This document shows positions 13,902 through 46,800 of a stretch of 64,000 nucleotides of DNA, piece after piece. The translations under genes and the position numbers were made by a program. Under the pieces are notes generated by a model. The model was not told the origin of the DNA and made no database searches. It was given only the letters and a program-made list of their open reading frames with translations. Origin of the DNA: a virus (lineage: Duplodnaviria; Caudoviricetes); IMG/VR virus record IMGVR_UViG_3300021255_002485, positions 1 through 64,000 of that record, one strand, 5' to 3'. Each line of letters begins with the position of its first letter. Positions within the stretch are counted from its first letter, which is position 1.

Positions 13902-14909
13902 ATGCCTAGAGGTAGGGGTGTATATAACAGAATATACACAGATGAAAAATGGGAGAAAGTAAATCCCGAAAATAAAGGTATTATGGACGATTTTTTGACC
14001 GAATATAAACAGCAGAAAAAGTCTGAATCAACCTTGAAAGCGTATTGGAACGACCTCCGTTTAATCCTGGTCAAAATTATGGAAGACTTTGATAATAAAT
14101 CGGTTCTTGAAATGTCAAAGAAAGATTTTCGTAGGTTAAATTTATGGTTCGATGAATCCGGGATGTCTCCTGCTCGATGCAACAGATTGCATAGTTGCAT
14201 CAATTCTTTGCTTACATTTTGCGAAGAAGATGATGATTATGATTATGAAGTCAATCAGAGTAAGAAGGTTAAAGGAGTACCTAATGTAAAGGTGAAAACC
14301 AATGAAGACGATTTTTTCTTTACTTTTGAAGAATTTATTCAAGTAAGAAGTAAATTAATTGAACAGGATGAATTACAAAAAGCTGTAATGTGGTCGTTAG
14401 CATTTGATTCTGGAGCTAGACGCAATGAAGTATTTCAAGTTCAAAAACATGGATTACTTGAAGGAAATAAAACTAATATAGTCAGAGGGAAACGAGGAAA
14501 AACATTCCCCCTTGTTTATTTAGATGATACCAAAGAACTGATCAAACAATATCTTGAACAACGTGGCGATGATGATATTGATTCTCTATGGATCATCGGT
14601 TCGGGATCTAATAAGCGTCCTCTTACAGATAGTATTACTCTTTATGATTGGTTAACGGGAAAATGTAACCGGATTTTACAAGAAATTCGCGGTGAAGAAA
14701 CGAATATATTCTTTCATACATGTAGACATTCTCGCATTGAAAGTTTAGTCCAAGGAACAGACAATCGCTTAAAGGATGAAAACGGAAAGAATAAGAAGTT
14801 TCCTTTGGAACAAGTTATGGTTTTAGTCCATCACTCGGATGTTTCAACAACACAATCATATTTAGCTAATCATGATGAAGATACCATAAACGAAATGTTT
14901 GGTTTTTAA
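13902..14909 (+). CDS. tyrosine recombinase embedded in the tail module
   Basis: Catalytic set SGARRNE (R), HTCRH (HxxR), HHSD (H), TTQSY (Y). Confidence 0.85.
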   Translation: MPRGRGVYNRIYTDEKWEKVNPENKGIMDDFLTEYKQQKKSESTLKAYWNDLRLILVKIMEDFDNKSVLEMSKKDFRRLNLWFDESGMSPARCNRLHSCINSLLTFCEEDDDYDYEVNQSKKVKGVPNVKVKTNEDDFFFTFEEFIQVRSKLIEQDELQKAVMWSLAFDSGARRNEVFQVQKHGLLEGNKTNIVRGKRGKTFPLVYLDDTKELIKQYLEQRGDDDIDSLWIIGSGSNKRPLTDSITLYDWLTGKCNRILQEIRGEETNIFFHTCRHSRIESLVQGTDNRLKDENGKNKKFPLEQVMVLVHHSDVSTTQSYLANHDEDTINEMFGF

Positions 14910-18925: not shown

Positions 18926-19438
18926 ATGAAGTGGCTGATAGTAGAACAAGATTATTTAGAATACTTGAGAGAAAATGGCGATCATAGAATTCCGTTATCT
19001 AATTATGGAAACGATAAATACAAACCGTTCTTTGGAAGTTTGTTCCAATCTAATGATTGCTATTACGTTACTCAAGTTTCACATCCTCAAAGAAAACACT
19101 ATACATTAAAAGATTCTTCAGATTTCAAGAGAATATTTGTGCCAGATTCTAATAAATTATTAGCAGTTGTGAATCTGAATTACATGTTTCCGATTCCAAA
19201 AGAATTATACAAGGAATTAGATTACCGTGAAATAGATAAATATAAGGATTTCAAGAATGATGATGATCGCAACAAATATATAGACTTGTTAAACAGAGAA
19301 TTAGATGAAATAAACAATATGGATTTATGTCATTCTTCTTTAATTGTGTATGAAAACAAGTATAATAATCCAGATTCACGTTTAGCGCAAAGAAGTTTGA
19401 ATTATAGACAATTAGAAAAATTGGCTCTCAAATATTGA
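18926..19438 (+). CDS. type III TA toxin, ToxN/AbiQ-family endoribonuclease
   Basis: Family-like motifs DYLEYLR..DHRIP, KPFFG, YYVTQVSHP, AVVNLNYMFPIP and terminal (L)NY..LE. Confidence 0.8.
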   Translation: MKWLIVEQDYLEYLRENGDHRIPLSNYGNDKYKPFFGSLFQSNDCYYVTQVSHPQRKHYTLKDSSDFKRIFVPDSNKLLAVVNLNYMFPIPKELYKELDYREIDKYKDFKNDDDRNKYIDLLNRELDEINNMDLCHSSLIVYENKYNNPDSRLAQRSLNYRQLEKLALKY

Positions 19439-19809: not shown

Positions 19810-19968
19810 TTAACGTTGCTTGCCGCTCTTGCTAAAACGGATCTCTAGTCCTTGCGCTGAGAACTTGAGATACTCGATTCGACTTCTAACATCCCAAACT
19901 AGCACGAGTGTACCAGCAACAAGAATTATTAGAGGTAAGCAAGAGGCTAACGTTTTTATTAATTGCAT
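19810..19968 (-). CDS. 52-aa single-TM peptide (MQLIKTLASCLPLIILVAGTLVLVWDVRSRIEY...), absent from ORF track
   Basis: Hand-translated. AAGGAGG RBS, hydrophobic N-half and basic C-half, GCAAGC/GCTTGC hairpin over the stop codon. Confidence 0.7.
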   Translation of the reverse strand: MQLIKTLASCLPLIILVAGTLVLVWDVRSRIEYLKFSAQGLEIRFSKSGKQR

Positions 19969-20106
19969 AAAGCGTTATCCTCCTTATGATTATTCTGGTA
20001 CATGTACATTTGATATTATATCATAACTCTCTTCGGGGTCATAGCCGGGGAGAGTATTATTTAGGCGTAATTTGCGCCGGAAAGGTGAAGAATGAAAGGA
20101 TAAGAT

Positions 20107-20550
20107 ATGGAATTAAGTATCAATGACATAACAATAAATCATATAGACGAATATGAAGTTTGTTTTTCTTTATCGGATAATGGCTCCGAACGATTAACAC
20201 AAAAGTATGGTATTCCCGGGGTCTTGATTATTCTAGGATTCAGATATCTCTTAAATAAGAAAATCATAATATTAGAAAAAGCTAATCCTAATAGTACATG
20301 GCTGGATTTTCAATATACTGATGATGAAGAATTGATGAATATTATTAAACTTCGCCTTGATGATCTCGGTAAAAAACGATTCAAAGGAGAAATGGAAACG
20401 AATACAGATCTTAATGATTTATTAAAAGGACTCAAAGAGGGCTTTATTGATGTAAATTCTCTTCAAGCCAGCGAGTATATGTACTTAAAACCCCGAGAAG
20501 AGTTTTCTCAGAAACATGAGTCACAAGCCAACCAATCTTCTCGGAATTGA
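20107..20550 (+). CDS. hypothetical protein
   Basis: GAAAGGA RBS. Its 3' end overlaps the antisense gene 20444-20647. Confidence 0.5.
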   Translation: MELSINDITINHIDEYEVCFSLSDNGSERLTQKYGIPGVLIILGFRYLLNKKIIILEKANPNSTWLDFQYTDDEELMNIIKLRLDDLGKKRFKGEMETNTDLNDLLKGLKEGFIDVNSLQASEYMYLKPREEFSQKHESQANQSSRN

Positions 20551-20647
20551 GAGGTTGATTTCCAATGTTATCCTGTATATCTTTGACTAAGGAAGCATGT
20601 AATTTGTCAAAATCCATATGTTTTAGGAAATCTTGAAAATCTAACAT
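20444..20647 (-). CDS. antisense accessory (moron) gene, 67 aa
   Basis: GAGAGG RBS and own promoter TTGATT-N17-TATTAT (20706-20678, - strand). Confidence 0.6.
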   Translation of the reverse strand: MLDFQDFLKHMDFDKLHASLVKDIQDNIGNQPLNSEKIGWLVTHVSEKTLLGVLSTYTRWLEENLHQ

Positions 20648-20763
20648 AGTATACCTCTCTAAAATACTTTCTCCTAAATAATAGTAGATTTAACAGAAAT
20701 AATCAAGTTATCTTTTTGAATTCAGATATATCATAGTAATTTGAGATTCAAAAAAATACTATG

Positions 20764-21418
20764 TTTACAACAAGAGGTGTGAATTATAGACAAAATGTTT
20801 AATGATTAAAAGGAGAAACAAATATGAATTGTAGATTTATGGGGGTGTACTATAATTATGGAGAAACAAATCCAATTTGACGTTTTGGCACTTCTGGATC
20901 AGGTTTCGGTTCCGTCTGAAGCCAAAAATTCAGTTGAGAAATGTGCTGGATCAACCTCAACGGCTTGCCAGTGTTGTCCGTACCGTGGAACACAAGTAAA
21001 TTGTACCCATCGAAGCCAATTTGTTCAACACGTAAAATAATCTGCTGATTAAACTGAACTAAGACCATAATTACGTCTTCTGTATTAGGAAGAGATTGTT
21101 GATATTCCAGTATTTCTTTGATTAAATATTGGGCTATAGTTTCAGCATTTGAGTTGTATAATAATTCAGCAATGCTTTGATTATTTGCACTTATTTCTAA
21201 TAATCTATGATTTTGTTCATTTTGTATTGTTGGATCGTATATCATACTTATCTCTTAGGATTTCATGTATATTATAGGTGTTTTGGATTCGAAAAGTATT
21301 TCATTATTATTTTACTTGTTCGTTTCATATTAAAGAACTCATATATGCATTAAAACAGTATTATAAAAAAGGATTGTAACACATCAATATGTCTTTTACA
21401 ACAAGAGGTGTGAATTAT
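20764..21418 (+). repeat. 24-bp exact direct repeat TTTACAACAAGAGGTGTGAATTAT (20764-20787 and 21395-21418)
   Basis: Read directly. The second copy is the RBS/start of gene 21417. The first copy ends ATA instead of ATG. Confidence 0.85.
20856..21245 (-). CDS. antisense accessory gene, DUF6173-like
   Basis: C-terminal LIQHISQLNF...RQIGF pattern recalled as DUF6173. Upstream - strand promoter TTGTAA-N17-TACAAT near 21401-21373. Confidence 0.6.
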   Translation of the reverse strand: MIYDPTIQNEQNHRLLEISANNQSIAELLYNSNAETIAQYLIKEILEYQQSLPNTEDVIMVLVQFNQQIILRVEQIGFDGYNLLVFHGTDNTGKPLRLIQHISQLNFWLQTEPKPDPEVPKRQIGFVSP

Positions 21419-21911
21419 GGCGAAAAATAATTTAACATTAAATCTAAATTCCTTAAAAAATGATTTGCGTAAATATGCTAATCAGGTATGTAAATATGCT
21501 GCAAGCGAGATTGCTGACGAATTAACAGAAGATACCGTATTTGCAATTGGAGTATTTTATTCGCATTATACTCCAGAAAAATATAAGCGACATTACTATA
21601 ACTTTATGAACAAGAGTTATAGAAGATACTATTCAAATCCTCATAATAAAATATATCGCGGAGGTGTTGAATTTACTCCTAATTTAATGGATAAATTATA
21701 TCGCGATTCTATAGATGAAGTGTTTGGATCAGTAATTGAACTCGGTTCTCATGGTCCAGAACTATACACAAATGTTCAACCAATGAGGCGATCTCCAATG
21801 CAAATGGTTATTGAGGACAGAGATAATATAGAAAAAAACATTGATGAATATATAAATAGAGCAAAAGCAAAAGCCAAAACTGGAACATATTCGGTTTTAT
21901 CGTTTAAATGA
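21417..21911 (+). CDS. basic tail-module protein preceding the tape measure gene
   Basis: GAGGTG RBS, 164 aa, position. Confidence 0.55.
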   Translation: MAKNNLTLNLNSLKNDLRKYANQVCKYAASEIADELTEDTVFAIGVFYSHYTPEKYKRHYYNFMNKSYRRYYSNPHNKIYRGGVEFTPNLMDKLYRDSIDEVFGSVIELGSHGPELYTNVQPMRRSPMQMVIEDRDNIEKNIDEYINRAKAKAKTGTYSVLSFK

Positions 21912-21926
21912 TAAGGAGGTATAGAT

Positions 21927-24900
21927 ATGCCGAGAGGAAATCCAACAATTAATATAGGACTTACGTCAGATATTGATGCTTATATAAAAGAATTAAAAGG
22001 TTCATTAAAAACTCTCGGTAATCAGGGAGTTGATTTAGGATTAGCAGATTCTGTTAAGAATGAAATAAATGAAATTGAAAAAATGCTCGATGGTCTTCAA
22101 AAAACAATGAAGACAATTTCTGGAACTAAACTCAGTTCTGCGACATTTAGCAAATTTCAGTCTCAAATAGGGCAACAATTAGAAGCTTTAGATAAAAGAA
22201 CAACGGCTCTTGAGAATGGTATGGATAGTCTTATTAATACCATGTCTAAAGCGGATGGCGGAAAGTTTGCATCTAATTTACAAAACATGCATAAAAACAT
22301 GGATGCTTTATGCGTAAGTACAAAAGAGACTGTACAAGCTATCTCTGAAATACAAGATACCATCAGAGATAATTCGAACATTCAATTGTTTGATGCAACA
22401 AAAAGCATAGGAGATTTAAAAGCTCTTAAATCTCTTGCCGAAGGAATTACCAAACAATTTGATAAAGAACCAAAATTTACTAAGCCCAAAAATATTGAAG
22501 AAGCGGTTGAATCAATTAATAAGCTCACAAATGAATATGACGAACTTGAAGATAAAATTTATGAATTAGATGAAAAAGAAGATCGAACATTTGAAGATTC
22601 TAGAAAACTCCTTGAATATAAGAATAGATTAGTTGAAATAGGACAGACAATCCAAAGAATTTATGATTATGGTTATGAAGAGGGATTTTCTGGAATTCAA
22701 CAGTTTGATTCATTAGCTGAGAGTCTGGATAGTTCTCTGGAAAGAATTCAAGAGGACACTAAATCTTATGTCACAAAAATCAATCAAGAGTTATCTAGGA
22801 TTGGACAAAATACAAATGTGTCATTACCTTCTTCGGATAGTATTGGAAAAGACAGTAAAGGTCTTACTGTTCCGATAGGGATACGTACAACATCTAGAGG
22901 GTTGCTCTCAGATTGTATGAAGATATTAACTTCGGTACAAAATAAATTATCTGATACACCTTTAGAAGTGGATTTGGCTCTAACTACTAAGTGGGGGACA
23001 AAGCGAAACAAAGAATTACTTAAGACATTTCAAGAACAAATAAACGGATTAACTGATCAATCTAATATCTCTGAGTTTCAAGCTCTTTATGATAAAGTTG
23101 CAAAGAGTTTTGGCGATGAAATAGAACTGAAGGTTGGTTCCAATATTGATGTTGTTGAAAAACAAATCACTAAAGTCATTACAAAATTACGCAAAGAGAT
23201 AAAAGATAATCCTCTTAATATTGATTTAGAATTCGATGTTAATGCTAAGAACAAGGCGGCTTTACAAGCGGCTTTAACAGATATTACAAGCGATGTAGTT
23301 GTTACGATAAAAAAGGTTAAATTCGCAAAAGAACTTAACGTAAAGAATACATTACAACAAGATTTTGATCAATTATCAACAGAACAACTTGATAAACTAC
23401 TTGCAAAAATTGATGAATTAAAGAATGCCTCTATTCCAATGGTTCAAACTATTGCAGAAATAAGGGAAATATTTAATTCATTTTCCACAGATAAACTTGT
23501 ATCTGAACTCAAAGAAGTTATTAGGTTGCTTCAAGTAGGTTTTAATGCATTGTCTATAAATGAGTTAGACAATATGTTTTCAAACTTGCAAAAAAGGGTA
23601 TCTTTTATTTCCGGTTCGTTAAGAGGTGCTAATCTTAATGAGATAAAAAGTGTTTTAGCCGACTTTAAGGAGTATCAGTCTCTTGGTGGGCAAAATAGTC
23701 TATCAGATTTAGGCGGAACAAAAAATATACAAAGTTGGCTTCGTAAACATATTGCAGACCAACAAGAGTTGCAATCAGAACTAAATGAAACTGCGAATGA
23801 AGTTAAAGAAGTTAATCGCGCAATTGAAGCTGAAAGTATATCACAATTAGTTCAACCACTTACTCAAGTCATTGAATTAATAAATACAAAATCTCAAGCT
23901 TTTGGGGATAGTTCTATAGTAACTTCACAATCGATTGACAATGAAATATCTGATCTGAATCGCTTGTCAACACATTTAGAAGAAATAGTGAGTCAGATTC
24001 AATCCATTGGAAATAGCAACACTTCTTTTGATGCAAAATGGCTGAAAGATTTAAAGAAGATAAAAGCTGATGATTTAAATAATGTATCAAATGCTTTATC
24101 TTCTATGTTTAATTCTTTACAAAAACTCGATTTATCTGATAGCAATTTTATCGTTCAGATACAACAGATTTTAGATAAAAGCAAAGAACTTTCAGATTTA
24201 GCAAAGATATTATCTGAAAGCACTAAAAAACTTAATGATATTTCCGAAAGAGTTAATACTCCGTTCACCAATGATGATTTAGCTCTTCAACAAGCATATA
24301 AAGATGCCGAAGAATATCAAGCAAGAGAAAAGGCATATCAAGAACAAAAGAATGTTCTTATTGCTGAGGGTGTTCGTCAACAAAAGGAATACGTTGAATC
24401 ACTAAAGCAAGCTACAGAAGAAAGCAAAAAACAATCTAGTGGCAAACAAAATATTATTAATAATATCAATAAAAATCTTGATAATGCTGGAAAATATTTA
24501 GATGCATCTAAATATACCAATGATTTTATCAATGGTATTAGTACCGTTATTGAAAAACTACAAAGACTTCGTGTTGAAATTGATCAACCGTTAGATGCAG
24601 ACGGATTACAAGAGGCTACAGATAAAGCTAAACTGCTTGCGAAAGAACTTAATGACAATATAGCTCAAAAAGCGTTGCCTGCTATGAAAAAAGCATCCGA
24701 GCAAACGATTAATAAAGCTTTATTAAAAATTGATCAATTTGTTAATGCAAATTCAGCAATGGGTCGTCAATGGAAACAAGAATTCGAAAATTTACGCATA
24801 AAGATTCAAGCTGCTGATTCCATTGAAGAGGTACAAAGATTAACAAATGAAGTTATTGAACTTGAATCTTCCGTGATTCGTGCAGGCAAAGCCGGAAGAT

Positions 24901-27900
24901 CTTCTTTCGATAATTTAGCTCAGCGTATAAAGCAAATGAGCACAAACTTCATTGCTATGCATTTGAGTCTATATGATATTGTACGATATACACGTGGTGC
25001 AGTAGACGAAATCCAAAAACTTGATTATGCTCTCGTAGATCTTCGTAAGACGACCACTATGAGTAATAGTGAGCTGAACGAATTCTACTTTAATGCAAAT
25101 GATGTAGCGAAAGAATTAGGAACTACTACGGAAGAAATTATAAACCAAGCAGCGGCTTGGTCAAGGTTAGGATATTCTTCCAAAGAAGCTGCTACAGAAA
25201 TGGCGGCTCTTAGTTCTCAATTTGCTGCTATATCTCCGGGAATGTCTCTGGATAATGCGACAGATGGTCTTGTATCAACTATGCAAGCATTCCATATTGA
25301 AGTTGATAAAGCCGAGAGAGACATTATGGATAATGTGAACAGAATCGGTAAATTTATGCCGAAACATATGGTAACATATGGGGTCGTTTATGCGGCCTAG
25401 AAGTGACTCAAAACGGGGAAACTCCTGAGAAGGACAATCCCGTGGGTAAGATTGACAAAGTTAAAGATTAATAATGTGAAGTATTTGACAATATAAATGT
25501 GTTATTGTATATTATAGATACAAAAAGACAGATACATAGACGGTTGAGCCGAGAGGTTCTATTTTATCTGAAAACTAATTTTATAGTTACAGCATCAATG
25601 ATCACCACTGGCATGGCGGTTATAATAAACAAGCAAATGTCGCCGTAAAGCGAGCGGTTCACCAAGTTATCAGTTACATCAAATTAGCAACCTACACCTT
25701 GGGCGAGGGCGGTTGCTTTTTTGATACTAAACTCCAAATGCCAATCACTATATCAATTAGGGATTTAATTCCGCTAATTATCGTGCTGGCAAGAGCAATC
25801 AGCTCAAAAGCCATACGGCTAACCTTTCGTTAGATTTTCCATCGGCATCCACCTCCTTTGGGATGGAAGTTCTCCGATCATAAATCGGGCAAAGGTGAAC
25901 CGCCTACCACTTTGGCGACATTTCTATAATACATTATATTTCACGTTATTATATCTTTCAAGTCAAATCCCGTAACGATCACAGGGTTTTAGTAATAAAA
26001 CCCGTATGTCACTCTCCTATTTTTTAGGAGAAAGGTATGATCTGAACTCACGCTATAACAAAATGAAACGTGAGAAGTAGCCAGAAATGACTACTCGCCT
26101 ATTTATTTAGGTCACAAAAGTAACAGATTGAATACGTTCGCAACATCCAATGATGAAATAATGGAGATGCTTAAGCGTTCATCAGCAGCGATGAATGCCG
26201 CAAACAATACTCTTGAAGAAACTATTGCACTCGAAAGTGCTGCTGTTCAAATCACGAGAAATGCTGAAACTACCGGAACGGCGTTTCGTACCATTTCTAT
26301 GAGGATTCGAGGTTATGACGAAGAGACCGAAGAATATATTGGTAATGTCGAAGAACTAACTGGTAAAATAGCTGATCTGACAAAAACAGCTGAAAAACCC
26401 GGTGGCGTATCCTTATTTAAGGATGCAGCCAAAACAGAATACAAATCTACATATGAACTGCTTAAGGAAATCAGTGAGATATATCACGATCTCACCGACA
26501 AACAACAAGCAGGTCTTCTTGAGGCTCTAGCCGGCAAACGTGGTGGACAAGTTTTGGCAGGCAAACATATATGCCTGAATGTACAGCAATGTGCATAACA
26601 GAATATATTTAATTGCAGGTAAAACCTAAAGCCTTGCACCACAATAATGGGGAAACCACATTATGATGGTACGAAAGTAGAAACAACGCAAGGATGGTAT
26701 ATGGTTAAAAACCTAAGTACTTTAGATAAAAATGGTAGTTCTTGCAGCGAAGCACCCTAACGTACCCCGTAGATCATACGGTACTTTAGGCGAGGGTGAA
26801 CGTTCAACGACTAGATTCATGTCGAGCTATAGACTAGAGAATAAGGGTGGAAATCCCGAATATCTATAGCAATAATCGTAGGGCGCAATCGCAAATGGCG
26901 TGGGTGAAATCCCCTTAAATCGAAAAGGTATACTCCTATGATTGACACTTTTAAAGGTGGATATTATAATCAAGGATGAAGAAATAGTCTGTTCTCATTT
27001 CGAAAGAATGAGATGTTATTAGTATTATGAGGTATATTTTTATATGAATAAAAAGAACCCGAGAAAAGTAACAGATACAGAAAGAGAAACAATGAAAAAC
27101 TTATATCTTTCTGGATGGAAAATGAAGGATATAGCTAAGAAACTAGATAGATATCCTGATGTTATAAGAAGAGCATTAATTGATATGCGAGTATATGACA
27201 ATAAAACAAATTATATGACCGAAGAAGAACTTAATTCAATTATTTTAGATTATCAAAAAGGAATGACCCCAAAGGAATTATCCATTAAGTATCATAGAGG
27301 GGATGGATATCTAATAAATAAATTGAAAAAAGCTGGAGTGTATCAGTACTCTACTTTAAGGATTTCTAAACAACAGTGGGAAAACATTGCAGAATTATAT
27401 CAATCTGGTAAGATTGATGAGATTTGGCGATTGTATCCTCAATTAACTCTATCATCTTTATATAGCAAAATGTCTAAAATGAATGTGCGTAATGGTACTA
27501 GAAATTATTGGACTGATAAAGATAGAGAAATTGTTAAAGAGTTTTATTTAGATAGTAATATTAATGATATATACGAGTTGATCGGTTATAGACATACAAT
27601 TGATGCAATTCAGACACTAGCATTCAAAGAATTTAGGTATTCTAAAAATAAAAATTGGTCTGATGAAGAAGATCGAATTTTAACGGAATGTTATTCAGTG
27701 TTACCAATTGAGAAGGTCTTAGAATTATTACCAAACAGGACATTAGAAGGTGTTAGAAATAGAGCGAAGAAATTTCGATTAATATCAAATTATAGAATAT
27801 CAACATATTGGACACAAGAAGAAAATGAGTTTTTATTTAATCATTGGCAAATGTTATCTGATTATGAAATATCAAAAATATTAAATAAAAACGAAATGTC

Positions 27901-30900
27901 TATAAAAGACCGTAGGAATTTATTAGGTTTATACAAGACAGATAAGTCAATGCAGAAATATAAGAAATTAAAGAAATTGTTTAGGGGACAAATCTGGTCT
28001 TGGAAACAAAAATCTGCCGAACAATGTAATTTTCAATGTGTTTTAACTGGATCATCGGAATTTCATATACATCATTTGTATGGTTTTAATGATATTTTTG
28101 TTGCATTTGTAAAATCGAATAATATTATAAGTGAAAATGTTGATGATTATTCTTTTGATGAACTGCAATCGTTATGTACAATGTTTGTAGAATATCACAA
28201 TCAATATCCTTTAGGAGTATGTGTAAGACCGGATTTACATATGTTATTTCATGACATTTACGGAAAACATAATAATACACCAGAACAATGGGAGAAGTTT
28301 AAGAATGATTATCAAAACCAATCAATTGCATAATACTAAAATCTAATAAGTGTTGCGAACTTATTGAACATATAGATACTCGATGATTTCTCAGAGGTAG
28401 ATCGAGCTATGACACAAATGTCTGATGCTGCGGGTGCAGCTGATGACGAAATAAAAATCGTGGAAGAGAGTATAGACTTCAGACTTAATCGTTTGAAAGA
28501 GACATGGGTAGGTACACTCCAAGATCTAATAGATCGTGGTGAAATCGGTGTAATCGTAGATGGATTGACAAAAATCTCTGAAGCCATCGGATTCATAGTA
28601 GATAAAATAGGTTTACTTAACCTCGGAGGCCTTGGACTAGAAGGCTTCTTAATGAGTAAAGGATTAGGGTTAACATTAGTCGTAGTTAACAAGCCCCTTA
28701 TTATAAGGTCATGCAATAATGCCGCATGATTAACGTAGTGAGTGTTTTAGACGGGTAACTGTCTAAACTAATCCATAAATGTCGAATATCGGGGGAAGCC
28801 GTAGCCCTTAACAGGGGTGTTTGATTGCTGAAATAAAAGCGTCATTTTATTATGATGTGCAATCAGGCTGTCAAAAACGGTAGTCCCGACGCGTCAATCA
28901 AAGAAACGCGCGAGAGACTGACAAGACACGGAGGCACACAGGCGTATATGTGTGTCGTTGCTGCAATATACAGTCCAGTGTGGGGAAAGCCCACCGTAGA
29001 ATAAGGATTAAAAGGAGAAACGAATATGGAAGACAAAATTAATGAATATAGAATTTATTGGGATACGGAATTAAGAAAAAAAGATAGAGAACTTATGCTT
29101 TGGATGTTTATTGCACTAATAAATGTTATACCTAATATCATAAATATTCTATCTTATTTTACAAAATAAGTATAAATCGTAATAAAGCTTGCAATAAAAC
29201 CGATGAGACCTCCAATAATGATACCGCTTCTAATAAGCCAATAATGAATTATAGTTAATTTCCCGAAATCAGTAATGGCAATAGGGAGTGTGTGATCAAA
29301 GCTGCATTCTGACTGACCTTCACCTAAATCAATAATAGCGACTTCATTACAAATATAGCCTTTTTTAGCCAAGGCTATAAGTTGCTTTGATACGGATTCT
29401 TCTGTTTCGTTATATAATAACACGCAGAAATCATGAAAATTTAGTGGGGAGCGTTTGTAGAGATACATCAATATCCTACAATCAGCATAATTTATCATAC
29501 TTATCCCCTAGGATTCCAAGTATATCCGCATTTTCCACATCGGTTCACGGTCTTACTGGCTCCTATGAAGCCCCAGAAATGATTAACTCCTCTTGCTCCG
29601 GTAGCGATATTGGTAGAACCGCATTTAGGGCATTTGAGAGCACTCTTTTCTTCTGCTTTAGCACTCTTCTGCCCCTCTACTTGAGCGCGGAATTGAGCCA
29701 TACGGGATTGATACTCGATGATGTCTTCTTCCTTGAGTTGCATCATGGCTTCGAAAAAGTCGGGATCGGTAGAGATTTTACCTATTATACTATAATCTGA
29801 ACCTTGTATATTTGTTTTCTTTAATTGATTAAATGGGGTATGACAACATATACATTCATCTCGATTGATAATTCTAGGATCAGGGATATATCCTTTAATT
29901 AAAAAATAAAAATGCTCATCTAAACTATTAGCACATGTTTTACAATAATAAATATATTCGTTTTCCATAATATTGTATTGCTCCTCATTCTTTAAGTATA
30001 ATTCTATCATATGGTTGTAAACTACGACAAGATAAACAATCAGTGGACAGGTATTATACCTAGTATAGTTTCGGCAAGGAAAGAACTTGTTACATTTAAT
30101 GATGAAACAGAAAGTTTCATTACTACTTTTAAGGGTTTTTCTGCTGGTATGAATTCAGATGGCATAGATAAACTTGCTGCTGATTTAAGGAATGTTGATC
30201 AAGAAGTTGTAAAATCTGCTAAAGGTTTTTCTCAAAGCGGTCAATCAATTGAACAATGGGAAAATAGCGTTCGTAGAGCGCAAGTATCCTCTTCAAACTT
30301 TGGTAATACATTAAAGTTTTTAGGTGGTATTCTAGCTAATATGGCTATAGCCGCTGTTTTAGAATCTCTTATTGCACTAACCTATGAATTAGCCAATGCT
30401 AACAGAAAGCTATTCGAAGAAGCTTCAAAACTGAATAACGAATATAATTCTGCTGAATTAGATATCGATAATTATAAAACACAAATACAAGATCTTCAGA
30501 ATAAAATCAATGATTCAACTACTTCTTACGAGGATGCTTGTGATGCCAGAGAACAATTACTTGATATTCAAGATAAGTTAATATCTAAATATGGAACGGA
30601 ACAAGGAGCAATCGAAGATATTACAGATGCTATTAACAATCAAGTATCTGCCTTGGATCGTTTAAAGGATTCTGAATATACAAAATTATTAGGGGAATAC
30701 AACAATCCAGATTTCTGGGATAATCCCATTCAGAATATTGCAGATAAAATTAATCGCTTTTCTTATGGTATAGCAGATTGGATTTTAGGTGGAGAATATG
30801 ATATCCCCTCTAGAAGTGATCTTTTAGTAAGGGAAATGGGTCATGTTTATGAATCTCTACGACTTCCGTCTAATGATTTAGATATATTAGAAAAGTATTC

Positions 30901-46536: not shown

Positions 46537-46800
46537 TTCAGTAACCCACGACTGAAGTCGTGGGATTGTTAGAAACCACTACATAGTGGTGACAATCCCA
46601 ATGCTGAATAGCCTAAATCCTACGAGGACTACGTTAAGAGAGAATATATAGGCACTTTGGAATGTATAGCCAAGTTCCGAACACTGCGGTCAGTGATTAA
46701 ACAATTCTGTTGGGTAGGGATAGTGTTGCTGATAAAAACCTCTCATTAACATTGGCGATGGCTACCTAACCACTCTTCGGAGTGAGTAATTAAAATAATC
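46537..46800 (+). ncRNA. IscB-type omegaRNA / HEARO RNA scaffold (IS200/IS605 OMEGA remnant) with no IscB gene
   Basis: End hairpin CCCACGACTGAAGTCGTGGG. HEARO-like blocks TAGCCTAA, GACTACGTT, ATAGGCAC, CTGCGG, GATTAAACA, AACATTGGCGA. Pairings GTTAAGAGAG/CTCTCATTAAC and TAGCCA/TGGCTA. Ends at an AAAGGAG RBS. Confidence 0.85.

Follow-up and report, generated by a model that had tools for sequence, protein, structure and literature searches.

We analyzed a 64,000-nucleotide (nt) stretch of DNA from a gut phage (Caudoviricetes), here called the window. The record from which it comes, IMGVR_UViG_3300021255_002485, is 131.8 kb long and has terminal repeats; the window is its first 64 kb. The window contains two small accessory units: unit 1, upstream of gene 21417, and unit 2, in a tape-measure region that resembles that of Brevibacillus phage Sundance, an SPbeta-type phage. 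A megablast search of positions 20000–30100 against GenBank phages gave no match. An earlier note on the window had claimed that the same two short sequences, box L and box R, bracket different cargo genes in the two units, and that accessory genes are swapped between these boxes and move between an intronic and an intergenic position. The boxes and cargos are arranged as follows (aa, amino acids; ORF, open reading frame; RBS, ribosome-binding site):

20800–20826, plus strand: box L copy 1, outside the intron, followed by an 18-codon ORF (20824–20880)
20856–21245, minus strand: unit 1 cargo, a DUF6173 gene (Pfam PF19670, 68 bits for a gathering cut-off of 27, E = 1.1e-18)
21240–21272, minus strand: box R copy 1, with a relic of the 3′ end of a zinc-ribbon gene, its stop, 2 nt and the DUF6173 ATG
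29002–29028, plus strand: box L copy 2, RBS and ATG of a 47-aa sense ORF, directly after the P9 hairpin of the intron
29154–29498, minus strand: unit 2 cargo, a 114-aa gene with a C-terminal hydrophobic/transmembrane segment, putatively 'wHTH-TM'
29493–29525, minus strand: box R copy 2, which joins the 3′ end of the zinc-ribbon gene (eight codons and stop) to the cargo ATG across 2 nt

Both repeats are present as described. Box L, with the pattern GATTAAAAGGAGAAAC(A/G)AATATG, occurs at 20804–20826 and 29006–29028 with 22 of 23 positions identical, and the repeat can be extended to the 27 nt listed above (25/27). The copies of box R at 21241–21272 and 29494–29525 agree at 28 of 32 positions, or 29 of 33 when widened to the limits in the list. 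Allowing up to three mismatches, each box is found twice in the 64 kb, compared with no occurrence in dinucleotide shuffles. Similarity between the two units ends at the boxes, with none beyond them.

On the minus strand, box R runs from the last eight zinc-ribbon codons (..YTWNPRG) and their stop, across 2 nt, into the ATG that starts the following gene. The start codons of both cargos, DUF6173 and the 114-aa ORF, fall within it. At unit 1, the zinc-ribbon frame of 21248–21272 reads YT*NPKR*, which is the 25-nt relic that had been proposed; no zinc-ribbon homology was found at unit 1 beyond it. What had been said of the cargos stood with respect to DUF6173, to an unrelated antisense gene with a hydrophobic C-terminus in unit 2, and to the two start codons in box R. 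The wHTH-TM label of the second gene is retained as putative: this gene has no Pfam match, and its homologues were found only in near-identical strains. The gene caller starts it 10 codons further in (P0276, 104 aa). Box L is the RBS and ATG of a small ORF on the sense strand. Its core, GATTAAAAGGAGAA, is the generic strong ribosome-binding context of the late genes of this phage and also precedes genes 15402, 5247 and 13469. The similarity of the two box L copies is thus partly non-specific, and the specific signal is confined to the spacer and the outer flanks. Scanning IMG/VR for exact copies of the two boxes returned chance matches only, in coding sequence (L004 and L005) or at ribosome-binding sites (L006 and L007). 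The motif TAC(A/G)ACAAGA, put forward in the earlier note as a shared end of the units, is present at the right end of both, yet an equally good local match arose in 693 of 2000 shuffles.

Unit 2 lies inside an interrupted gene. Exons 1 to 3 were placed by tblastn with the tape-measure proteins of relatives and of Sundance, at 21927–25349, 26131–26562 and from 28376. In uninterrupted tape-measure homologues, the regions corresponding to exons 1, 2, 3 and 4 are collinear in one protein. The host gene is a giant SPbeta/Sundance-type tape-measure gene with four exons and three introns, the third of which is predicted to be a group I intron:

28671–30014, plus strand: group I intron 3, with a core at about 28671–29004, a loop of about 1 kb that contains unit 2, and a terminal G at 30014

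The relatives used for comparison are all metagenome contigs, gathered through the zinc-ribbon protein and referred to by L numbers. Conservation of the approximately 330 nt behind the apparent exon 3 stop is about 90% in L009, L010, L011 and L016, and this stretch is recognizable in the more distant L013. P1 pairs GGGU (28667–28670) with GCCC (28693–28696), placing a U·G pair at the proposed 5′ splice site in all five aligned sequences. RNAalifold applied to five core sequences gave 98 pairs, 19 of them compensatory, including helices that we read as P2, P8, P9 and a P7-like GACUG/CAGUC; the P3 pseudoknot was read by eye. The guide at 28679–28692 pairs with the 3′ exon at 30015–30028 (P10) at 13 of 14 positions, and a change in the guide of L013 is compensatory. 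Joining 28670 to 30015 keeps the frame (..GLG-F-VNYDK..), as do the equivalent joints in L009, L011 and L013. In L011 the downstream frame has no stop between the conserved junction and its first ATG, which lies about 40 codons further on. The core, guide and splice sites all indicate that unit 2 lies within predicted intron 3, between the ribozyme core and a distant 3′ splice site, in line with the intronic position assigned to it by the earlier note. We had considered a plain intergenic gap between two tape-measure genes as the location of unit 2, and dropped this option because the apparent spacer is a ribozyme core with matching guide and splice sites.

No Rfam group I model matched intron 3, either at the gathering threshold or at E values up to 10, and introns 1 and 2 were also unrecognized. 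The borders of intron 1 are nevertheless confirmed by an exact intron-less DNA allele. Contigs of near-identical strains from two runs lack exactly 25350–26130 (joint 25349 to 26131, 781 nt skipped), which confirms intron 1 as a mobile insertion and indicates that an intron-less allele circulates in near-identical strains. A 23-mer of the ribozyme core of intron 3 had no exact match in viral, genome or metagenome contigs.

Two other features of the tape-measure gene are recorded here. In the strain type represented by L019 and L021, exon 2 carries about 1.6 kb of extra DNA (at window positions 26276–26281; L021:13387–14454), including a 355-aa ORF that has a counterpart of the same length in L010. 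This DNA is probably a further intron that is missing from the window. The ORF of intron 2 (27044–28333, 429 aa) has only HTH/Myb-like and weak HNH-related matches, making it an atypical homing-endonuclease candidate.

At the far end of the intron 3 loop is the zinc-ribbon gene, whose 3′ end contributes box R. This gene and the promoter-like sites of the two units are as follows:

29501–29968, minus strand: conserved double zinc-ribbon gene, 155 aa from ATG 29968, with 124 homologues
30001–30030, minus strand: leftward promoter-like site of unit 2 (TTGTCG, 18 nt, TG-n-TAGAAT), with its −35 hexamer in exon 4
21360–21401, minus strand: leftward promoter-like sites of unit 1 (TTGTAA, 17 nt, TG-n-TACAAT; and TTGATG, 16 nt, TATAAT)

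The start of the zinc-ribbon gene is probably 29968, because an RBS precedes this ATG and none precedes the ATG at 30010. The gene occupies the same place between tape-measure parts in L009–L011, L013, L016 and L017. No clear intrinsic terminator was found at either unit.

The stretch from the ribozyme core and box L to the stop of the zinc-ribbon gene, which we term the slot, differs among relatives:

L009 and L011: empty, the core abutting the end of the zinc-ribbon gene
L010: a 67-aa gene
L016 and L017: DUF6173
window, L018 and L021: the wHTH-TM gene
L013: three genes

Single-protein queries with the zinc-ribbon protein or DUF6173 returned no related loci. An alignment query returned 55 IMG/VR loci, 15 of which have a homologous core downstream of the zinc-ribbon gene; their slots range from 275 nt to 4.8 kb. 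Together with the window and five Logan relatives, these give 21 catalogued slots, in which 132 mechanically called ORFs of at least 60 aa fall into 56 clusters in mosaic combinations. The variation of cargo expected by the earlier note is therefore real, and the cargo in the slot is diverse. The role it assigned to the boxes was not supported: both are missing from the 15 wider relatives, where cargo varies most, and the breakpoints between strains, given below, lie elsewhere.

These observations bear on the idea of a dedicated, box-directed cassette system analogous to an integron, in which the zinc-ribbon protein or the tyrosine recombinase encoded at 13902–14909 would be the mover. Within a narrow clade the left and right limits are the same around three unrelated cargos (window, L010 and L016), as such a system would produce; the zinc-ribbon gene always accompanies the slot, and the Phage_integrase-family gene lies 6 kb upstream. 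But apart from their absence in the wider family, both boxes fall on functional parts of genes, namely translation starts and the end of a gene, and box L has as its core the generic RBS of the phage. Integron cassettes end in imperfect inverted repeats or hairpin sites that an adjacent tyrosine recombinase recognizes; the boxes, as RBS/ATG junctions, show no hairpin or attC-like symmetry. Integron cassettes are also promoterless and lie in one orientation behind a common promoter, whereas each unit here has its own leftward promoter-like site. The recombinase is conserved beside the tape-measure genes of Sundance and L012, regions in which no such units were seen. We therefore regard a box-directed system as most improbable.

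Comparison of the intergenic units with the intron slots of relatives reveals where their contents are found elsewhere. The DUF6173 gene of unit 1 has 79% DNA identity to the copy in L016, which is intronic and lies beside box L. In L016 and L017, DUF6173 starts 2 nt after an intact zinc-ribbon gene. This arrangement explains the relic at 21248–21272 and suggests that unit 1 is displaced slot content, carrying scars of both flanks. A second case lies just left of unit 1:

20444–20647, minus strand: 67-aa gene ('unit 0'), whose homologue is the intron-slot cargo of L010
20375–20403, plus strand: box-L-like stretch, now within a 147-aa ORF (20107–20550); the homologous sense ORF of L010 begins here

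In L010 this 67-aa gene sits within the intron; in the window it lies outside and retains the box-L-like left flank. Thus, two extra-intronic units correspond to two different intron cargos. Both matches support cargo exchange and traffic between intronic and intergenic sites, and movement between the two positions, as the earlier note had envisaged, is borne out by them. The one pointer to direction is the truncated zinc-ribbon relic, which suggests transfer out of the intron. If instead the intron loop had been copied once, long ago, and the cargos had since slowly diverged with no ongoing traffic, a single pair of each box in the genome would be expected, as observed, and the 7–12% divergence of the boxes would be natural. 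A single copying event does not account for two units matching two different intron cargos of relatives, nor for the great diversity of slot content. Cargo differences at both sites between strains of 99% identity weaken it further, and we consider it improbable.

The strain differences are concentrated at two hot spots, the intron slot and the region upstream of gene 21417; the latter is about 310 nt long in L012 versus 1.6 kb in the window. Unit 1 is bracketed there by a direct repeat:

20764–20795, plus strand: left copy, in which the start codon of gene 21417 has decayed to ATA
21395–21426, plus strand: right copy, the RBS and ATG start of gene 21417, overlapping the −35 of the leftward promoter-like site

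The two copies agree at 29 of 32 positions, the first 24 nt being identical. In the L019/L021 strain type, whose flanks are 99.0–99.6% identical to the window, a forward 236-aa gene replaces 20565–21403 and, in the same comparison, a patch at 29092–29228 is replaced. The breakpoints, 20564/21404 and 29091/29229, are off the boxes; 21404 falls within the 32-nt repeat and 20564 in no repeat. Both strain types were found in runs of the same study. In a further variant (X6), 328 other letters replace 29092–29469 and may represent either a different gene or a divergent allele. Accessory units are thus present, absent or replaced among relatives and strains. A joint from 19969 to 21781 in two contigs (X4 and X5) was discounted as evidence, since only 34 letters match on one side and the likeness is low. 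A possible homology between the 32-nt repeat and the 3′ splice junction was rejected, as the match is at chance level.

The repeat at unit 1 recalls the PeSL cassettes of T4-type phages, in which small accessory genes occupy hyperplastic regions between short conserved regulatory sequences (PMC2839356; PMC4122927). As in that system (Arbiol et al. 2010; Comeau et al. 2014), close relatives here differ by insertion, deletion and replacement; for T4-type phages, recombination at short motifs is the proposed driver. Applied to the window, PeSL-type shuffling would excise and reinsert units at short repeated regulatory motifs, possibly via small circles; the 32-nt repeat, with its promoter −35 and RBS, and the box-L-type ribosome-binding sites across the late region are the candidate motifs. 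In favor of this, the repeat lies on both sides of unit 1, overlaps a promoter-like site and contains the right breakpoint of the strain replacement; box-L-like sites precede several late genes; and both shuffling and mini-circles are documented in T4-type phages (PMC2839356). On the other hand, the repeat has two copies only and carries no terminator stem-loop, the left breakpoint is outside any repeat, and a variant strain lacks the first half of the repeat. The motifs also differ in kind, being translation-start junctions and a gene-end relic rather than promoter-plus-terminator stem-loops; one of the two hot spots is within a predicted self-splicing intron. Shuffling of this type is in our view unlikely, although it has more in its favor than a single old copy.

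Each antisense cargo is opposed by a small sense-strand ORF, such that the cargos read as facing pairs:

29026–29169, plus strand: 47-aa membrane-peptide ORF, which begins at box L and converges on the wHTH-TM gene
20858–21040, plus strand: 60-aa Cys-rich ORF opposite the 3′ half of DUF6173, its ATG overlapping the DUF6173 stop

In the window, L016 and L017, the sense frame opposite DUF6173 contains no stop over 60–63 codons, compared with 6–10 stops in its other 68 codons. In L016 and L017 its ATG comes directly after box L. Open in three relatives with 66–77% protein identity, the Cys-rich frame is a candidate overlapping gene. The 67-aa gene differs from its L010 homologue at 5 of 67 residues, and 10 of the 15 substitutions outside the overlap described next are at third codon positions. 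It overlaps the tail of the sense 147-aa ORF by about 100 nt (20444–20550); against L010 this overlap has 4 substitutions in 104 nt versus 15 in the adjoining 97 nt, which fits constraint on both strands. In L021, the 47-aa peptide and the wHTH-TM protein have had only their hydrophobic, membrane-spanning ends replaced, both together and with the frames kept (29092–29228; L021:10290–10433): the 47-aa ORF retains its frame and an NxIPNIIN motif while the nucleotides of its hydrophobic part are replaced. Judging from this joint replacement, the two proteins may interact. Searches of PHROGs, PADLOC and the protein atlas assigned no function to the zinc-ribbon protein or to the cargos; the only hits were to unnamed viral clusters and, for the 47-aa peptide, a weak one to 4TM. 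No slot gene matched a transposase family. Elsewhere, an NCBI metagenome-assembled genome (L015:6001–7936) has two zinc-ribbon paralogues near a YoeB/YefM toxin-antitoxin pair, with no recognizable tape-measure gene adjoining.

Box L of unit 2 may also have a structural role, as it is part of a predicted long-range helix:

28995–29051, plus strand: predicted 5′ strand, comprising the post-P9 GUAGAAU, box L and first codons
29952–30008, plus strand: predicted 3′ strand, the complement of the zinc-ribbon leader and start, ending 6 nt before the terminal G

The duplex has a predicted energy of −28.3 kcal/mol, reached by 2 of 300 shuffles. The same helix is predicted in L010 and L016 (z ~ −3), where box L also directly follows the core and P9 hairpin. 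The pairing is not predicted in L009 and L011, which carry no cargo. The near-identical box L of unit 1 shows no pairing above shuffles with either right end, and the same is true of the 67-aa unit. The folding predictions suggest that the cargo loop of approximately 1 kb is closed by a helix to which intronic box L contributes one strand.

Taken together, these comparisons lead us to propose, with moderate confidence, that the boxes are inward-facing gene-start junctions bordering a variable intron slot, that slot contents are exchanged by ordinary recombination, and that unit 1 is displaced slot content in which the boxes are scars. Box R would be where the antisense, self-promoted zinc-ribbon gene ends and, closely coupled to it (stop, 2 nt, ATG), the adjoining cargo begins, whichever this is. 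Box L would be the start of a small sense ORF that converges on or overlaps the cargo. Related phages would swap slot contents by ordinary recombination, with the ribozyme core as one homology arm and the zinc-ribbon gene and exon 4 as the other. Unit 1, comprising box L, the sense ORF, DUF6173 and 25 nt from the 3′ end of the zinc-ribbon gene, would have landed upstream of gene 21417 by illegitimate recombination, and would then have gained its own leftward promoter at this second hot spot. The neighboring 67-aa gene would share this kind of history. On this proposal the boxes of unit 1 are scars of descent and not active recombination sites.

Several points weigh against this proposal. No recombination intermediate or crossover was seen, and close relatives are so few that breakpoints within the flanks are unmappable. 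Two independent transfers, of DUF6173 and of the 67-aa gene, between the same two sites exceed what random scars predict; a directed process or shared microhomology may lie behind them. The 32-nt direct repeat around unit 1 is not a product of simple homologous exchange. Splicing of exon 3 to exon 4 is a prediction from sequence, and two similar translation starts placed face to face could have given rise to the long-range helix as a by-product. If traffic were in fact directed, facing-pair cassettes would be moved between the intron, as a 'safe harbor', and the upstream hot spot by a mechanism that recognizes the box junctions; the zinc-ribbon protein, the nearby tyrosine recombinase and an RNA-level route via the excised intron are candidate movers. 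The result would be an integron analogue carried by a phage and anchored in an intron, and we consider this reading very improbable.

The slot and its intergenic counterpart resemble several known arrangements in part. Morons are reportedly self-promoted accessory genes that are found between or inside the late-operon genes of lambdoid and other tailed phages. The units share with them promoter-like sites and presence or absence among relatives, and the likeness is partial, no intrinsic terminator having been found. They differ from morons in being antisense, and one set is intronic, leaving the host gene intact only through splicing. In the T4 nrdD (sunY) intron, a 5′ core is followed by an ORF-bearing loop before the 3′ splice site, and the ORF is a sense-strand homing endonuclease. 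There, as predicted here, peripheral pairings return the 3′ splice site to the core; the loop in the window instead holds an antisense operon and a changeable slot. The IStrons CdISt1 and BcISt1 consist of a group I ribozyme with foreign genes before a distant 3′ splice site (Tourasse et al. 2014, PMC4227781). Intron 3 shares with them a ribozyme without homing endonuclease at the 5′ end and at least about 1 kb of foreign genes that separates the core from the 3′ splice site. Unlike IStrons, it has no IS200/IS605 transposase, its passengers are backwards and variable, and it is fixed at one conserved site of one gene. The group I introns TMP-IVS1/2/3 are described from prophages of the Bacillus cereus group, where they interrupt tape-measure genes (Tourasse and Kolsto 2008, PMC2504315). 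From the parts of that report consulted, the likeness lies in several group I insertion sites per tape-measure gene; those parts contain no description of antisense accessory operons or of cargo exchange with intergenic sites (PMC2504315). Group I introns in tape-measure genes, foreign genes between core and 3′ splice site, and small-gene shuffling at short motifs are therefore already known. What is new is the traced movement of cargo, flanks included, between an intron slot and an intergenic hot spot, together with the facing-pair make-up and the candidate role of box L in splicing.

Other features of the window lie near this region. The tyrosine recombinase gene (13902–14909, Phage_integrase family) is inside the tail module, and occupies the same place in Sundance (gp033) and L012. 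A ToxN-family type III toxin gene (18926–19438; PF13958, E = 8e-36) lies just upstream of the accessory hot spot. The left edge of the hot spot is marked by a small antisense hydrophobic ORF of 52 aa (19810–19968, minus strand), with a promoter-like site running from 20042 to 20015, between two terminator-like hairpins; a look-up of the 52-aa protein found nothing on record. A full-length HEARO RNA, a type linked to IscB/HNH-type elements, is present at 46537–46770 (RF02033, 126 bits).

Accessory ('moron') genes are where phages keep defense, counter-defense and exclusion functions, and their gain and loss have been explained mostly by anecdote. Pairs of strains such as those described here, with 99% identity and differences only at the two hot spots, suit a direct measurement of exchange. 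If box L does close the cargo loop for splicing, cargo exchange would be tied to intron function. An essential structural gene would tolerate a changeable slot because that slot is inside a self-splicing intron, and the intron can be pictured as a safe landing pad and a reservoir of accessory genes.

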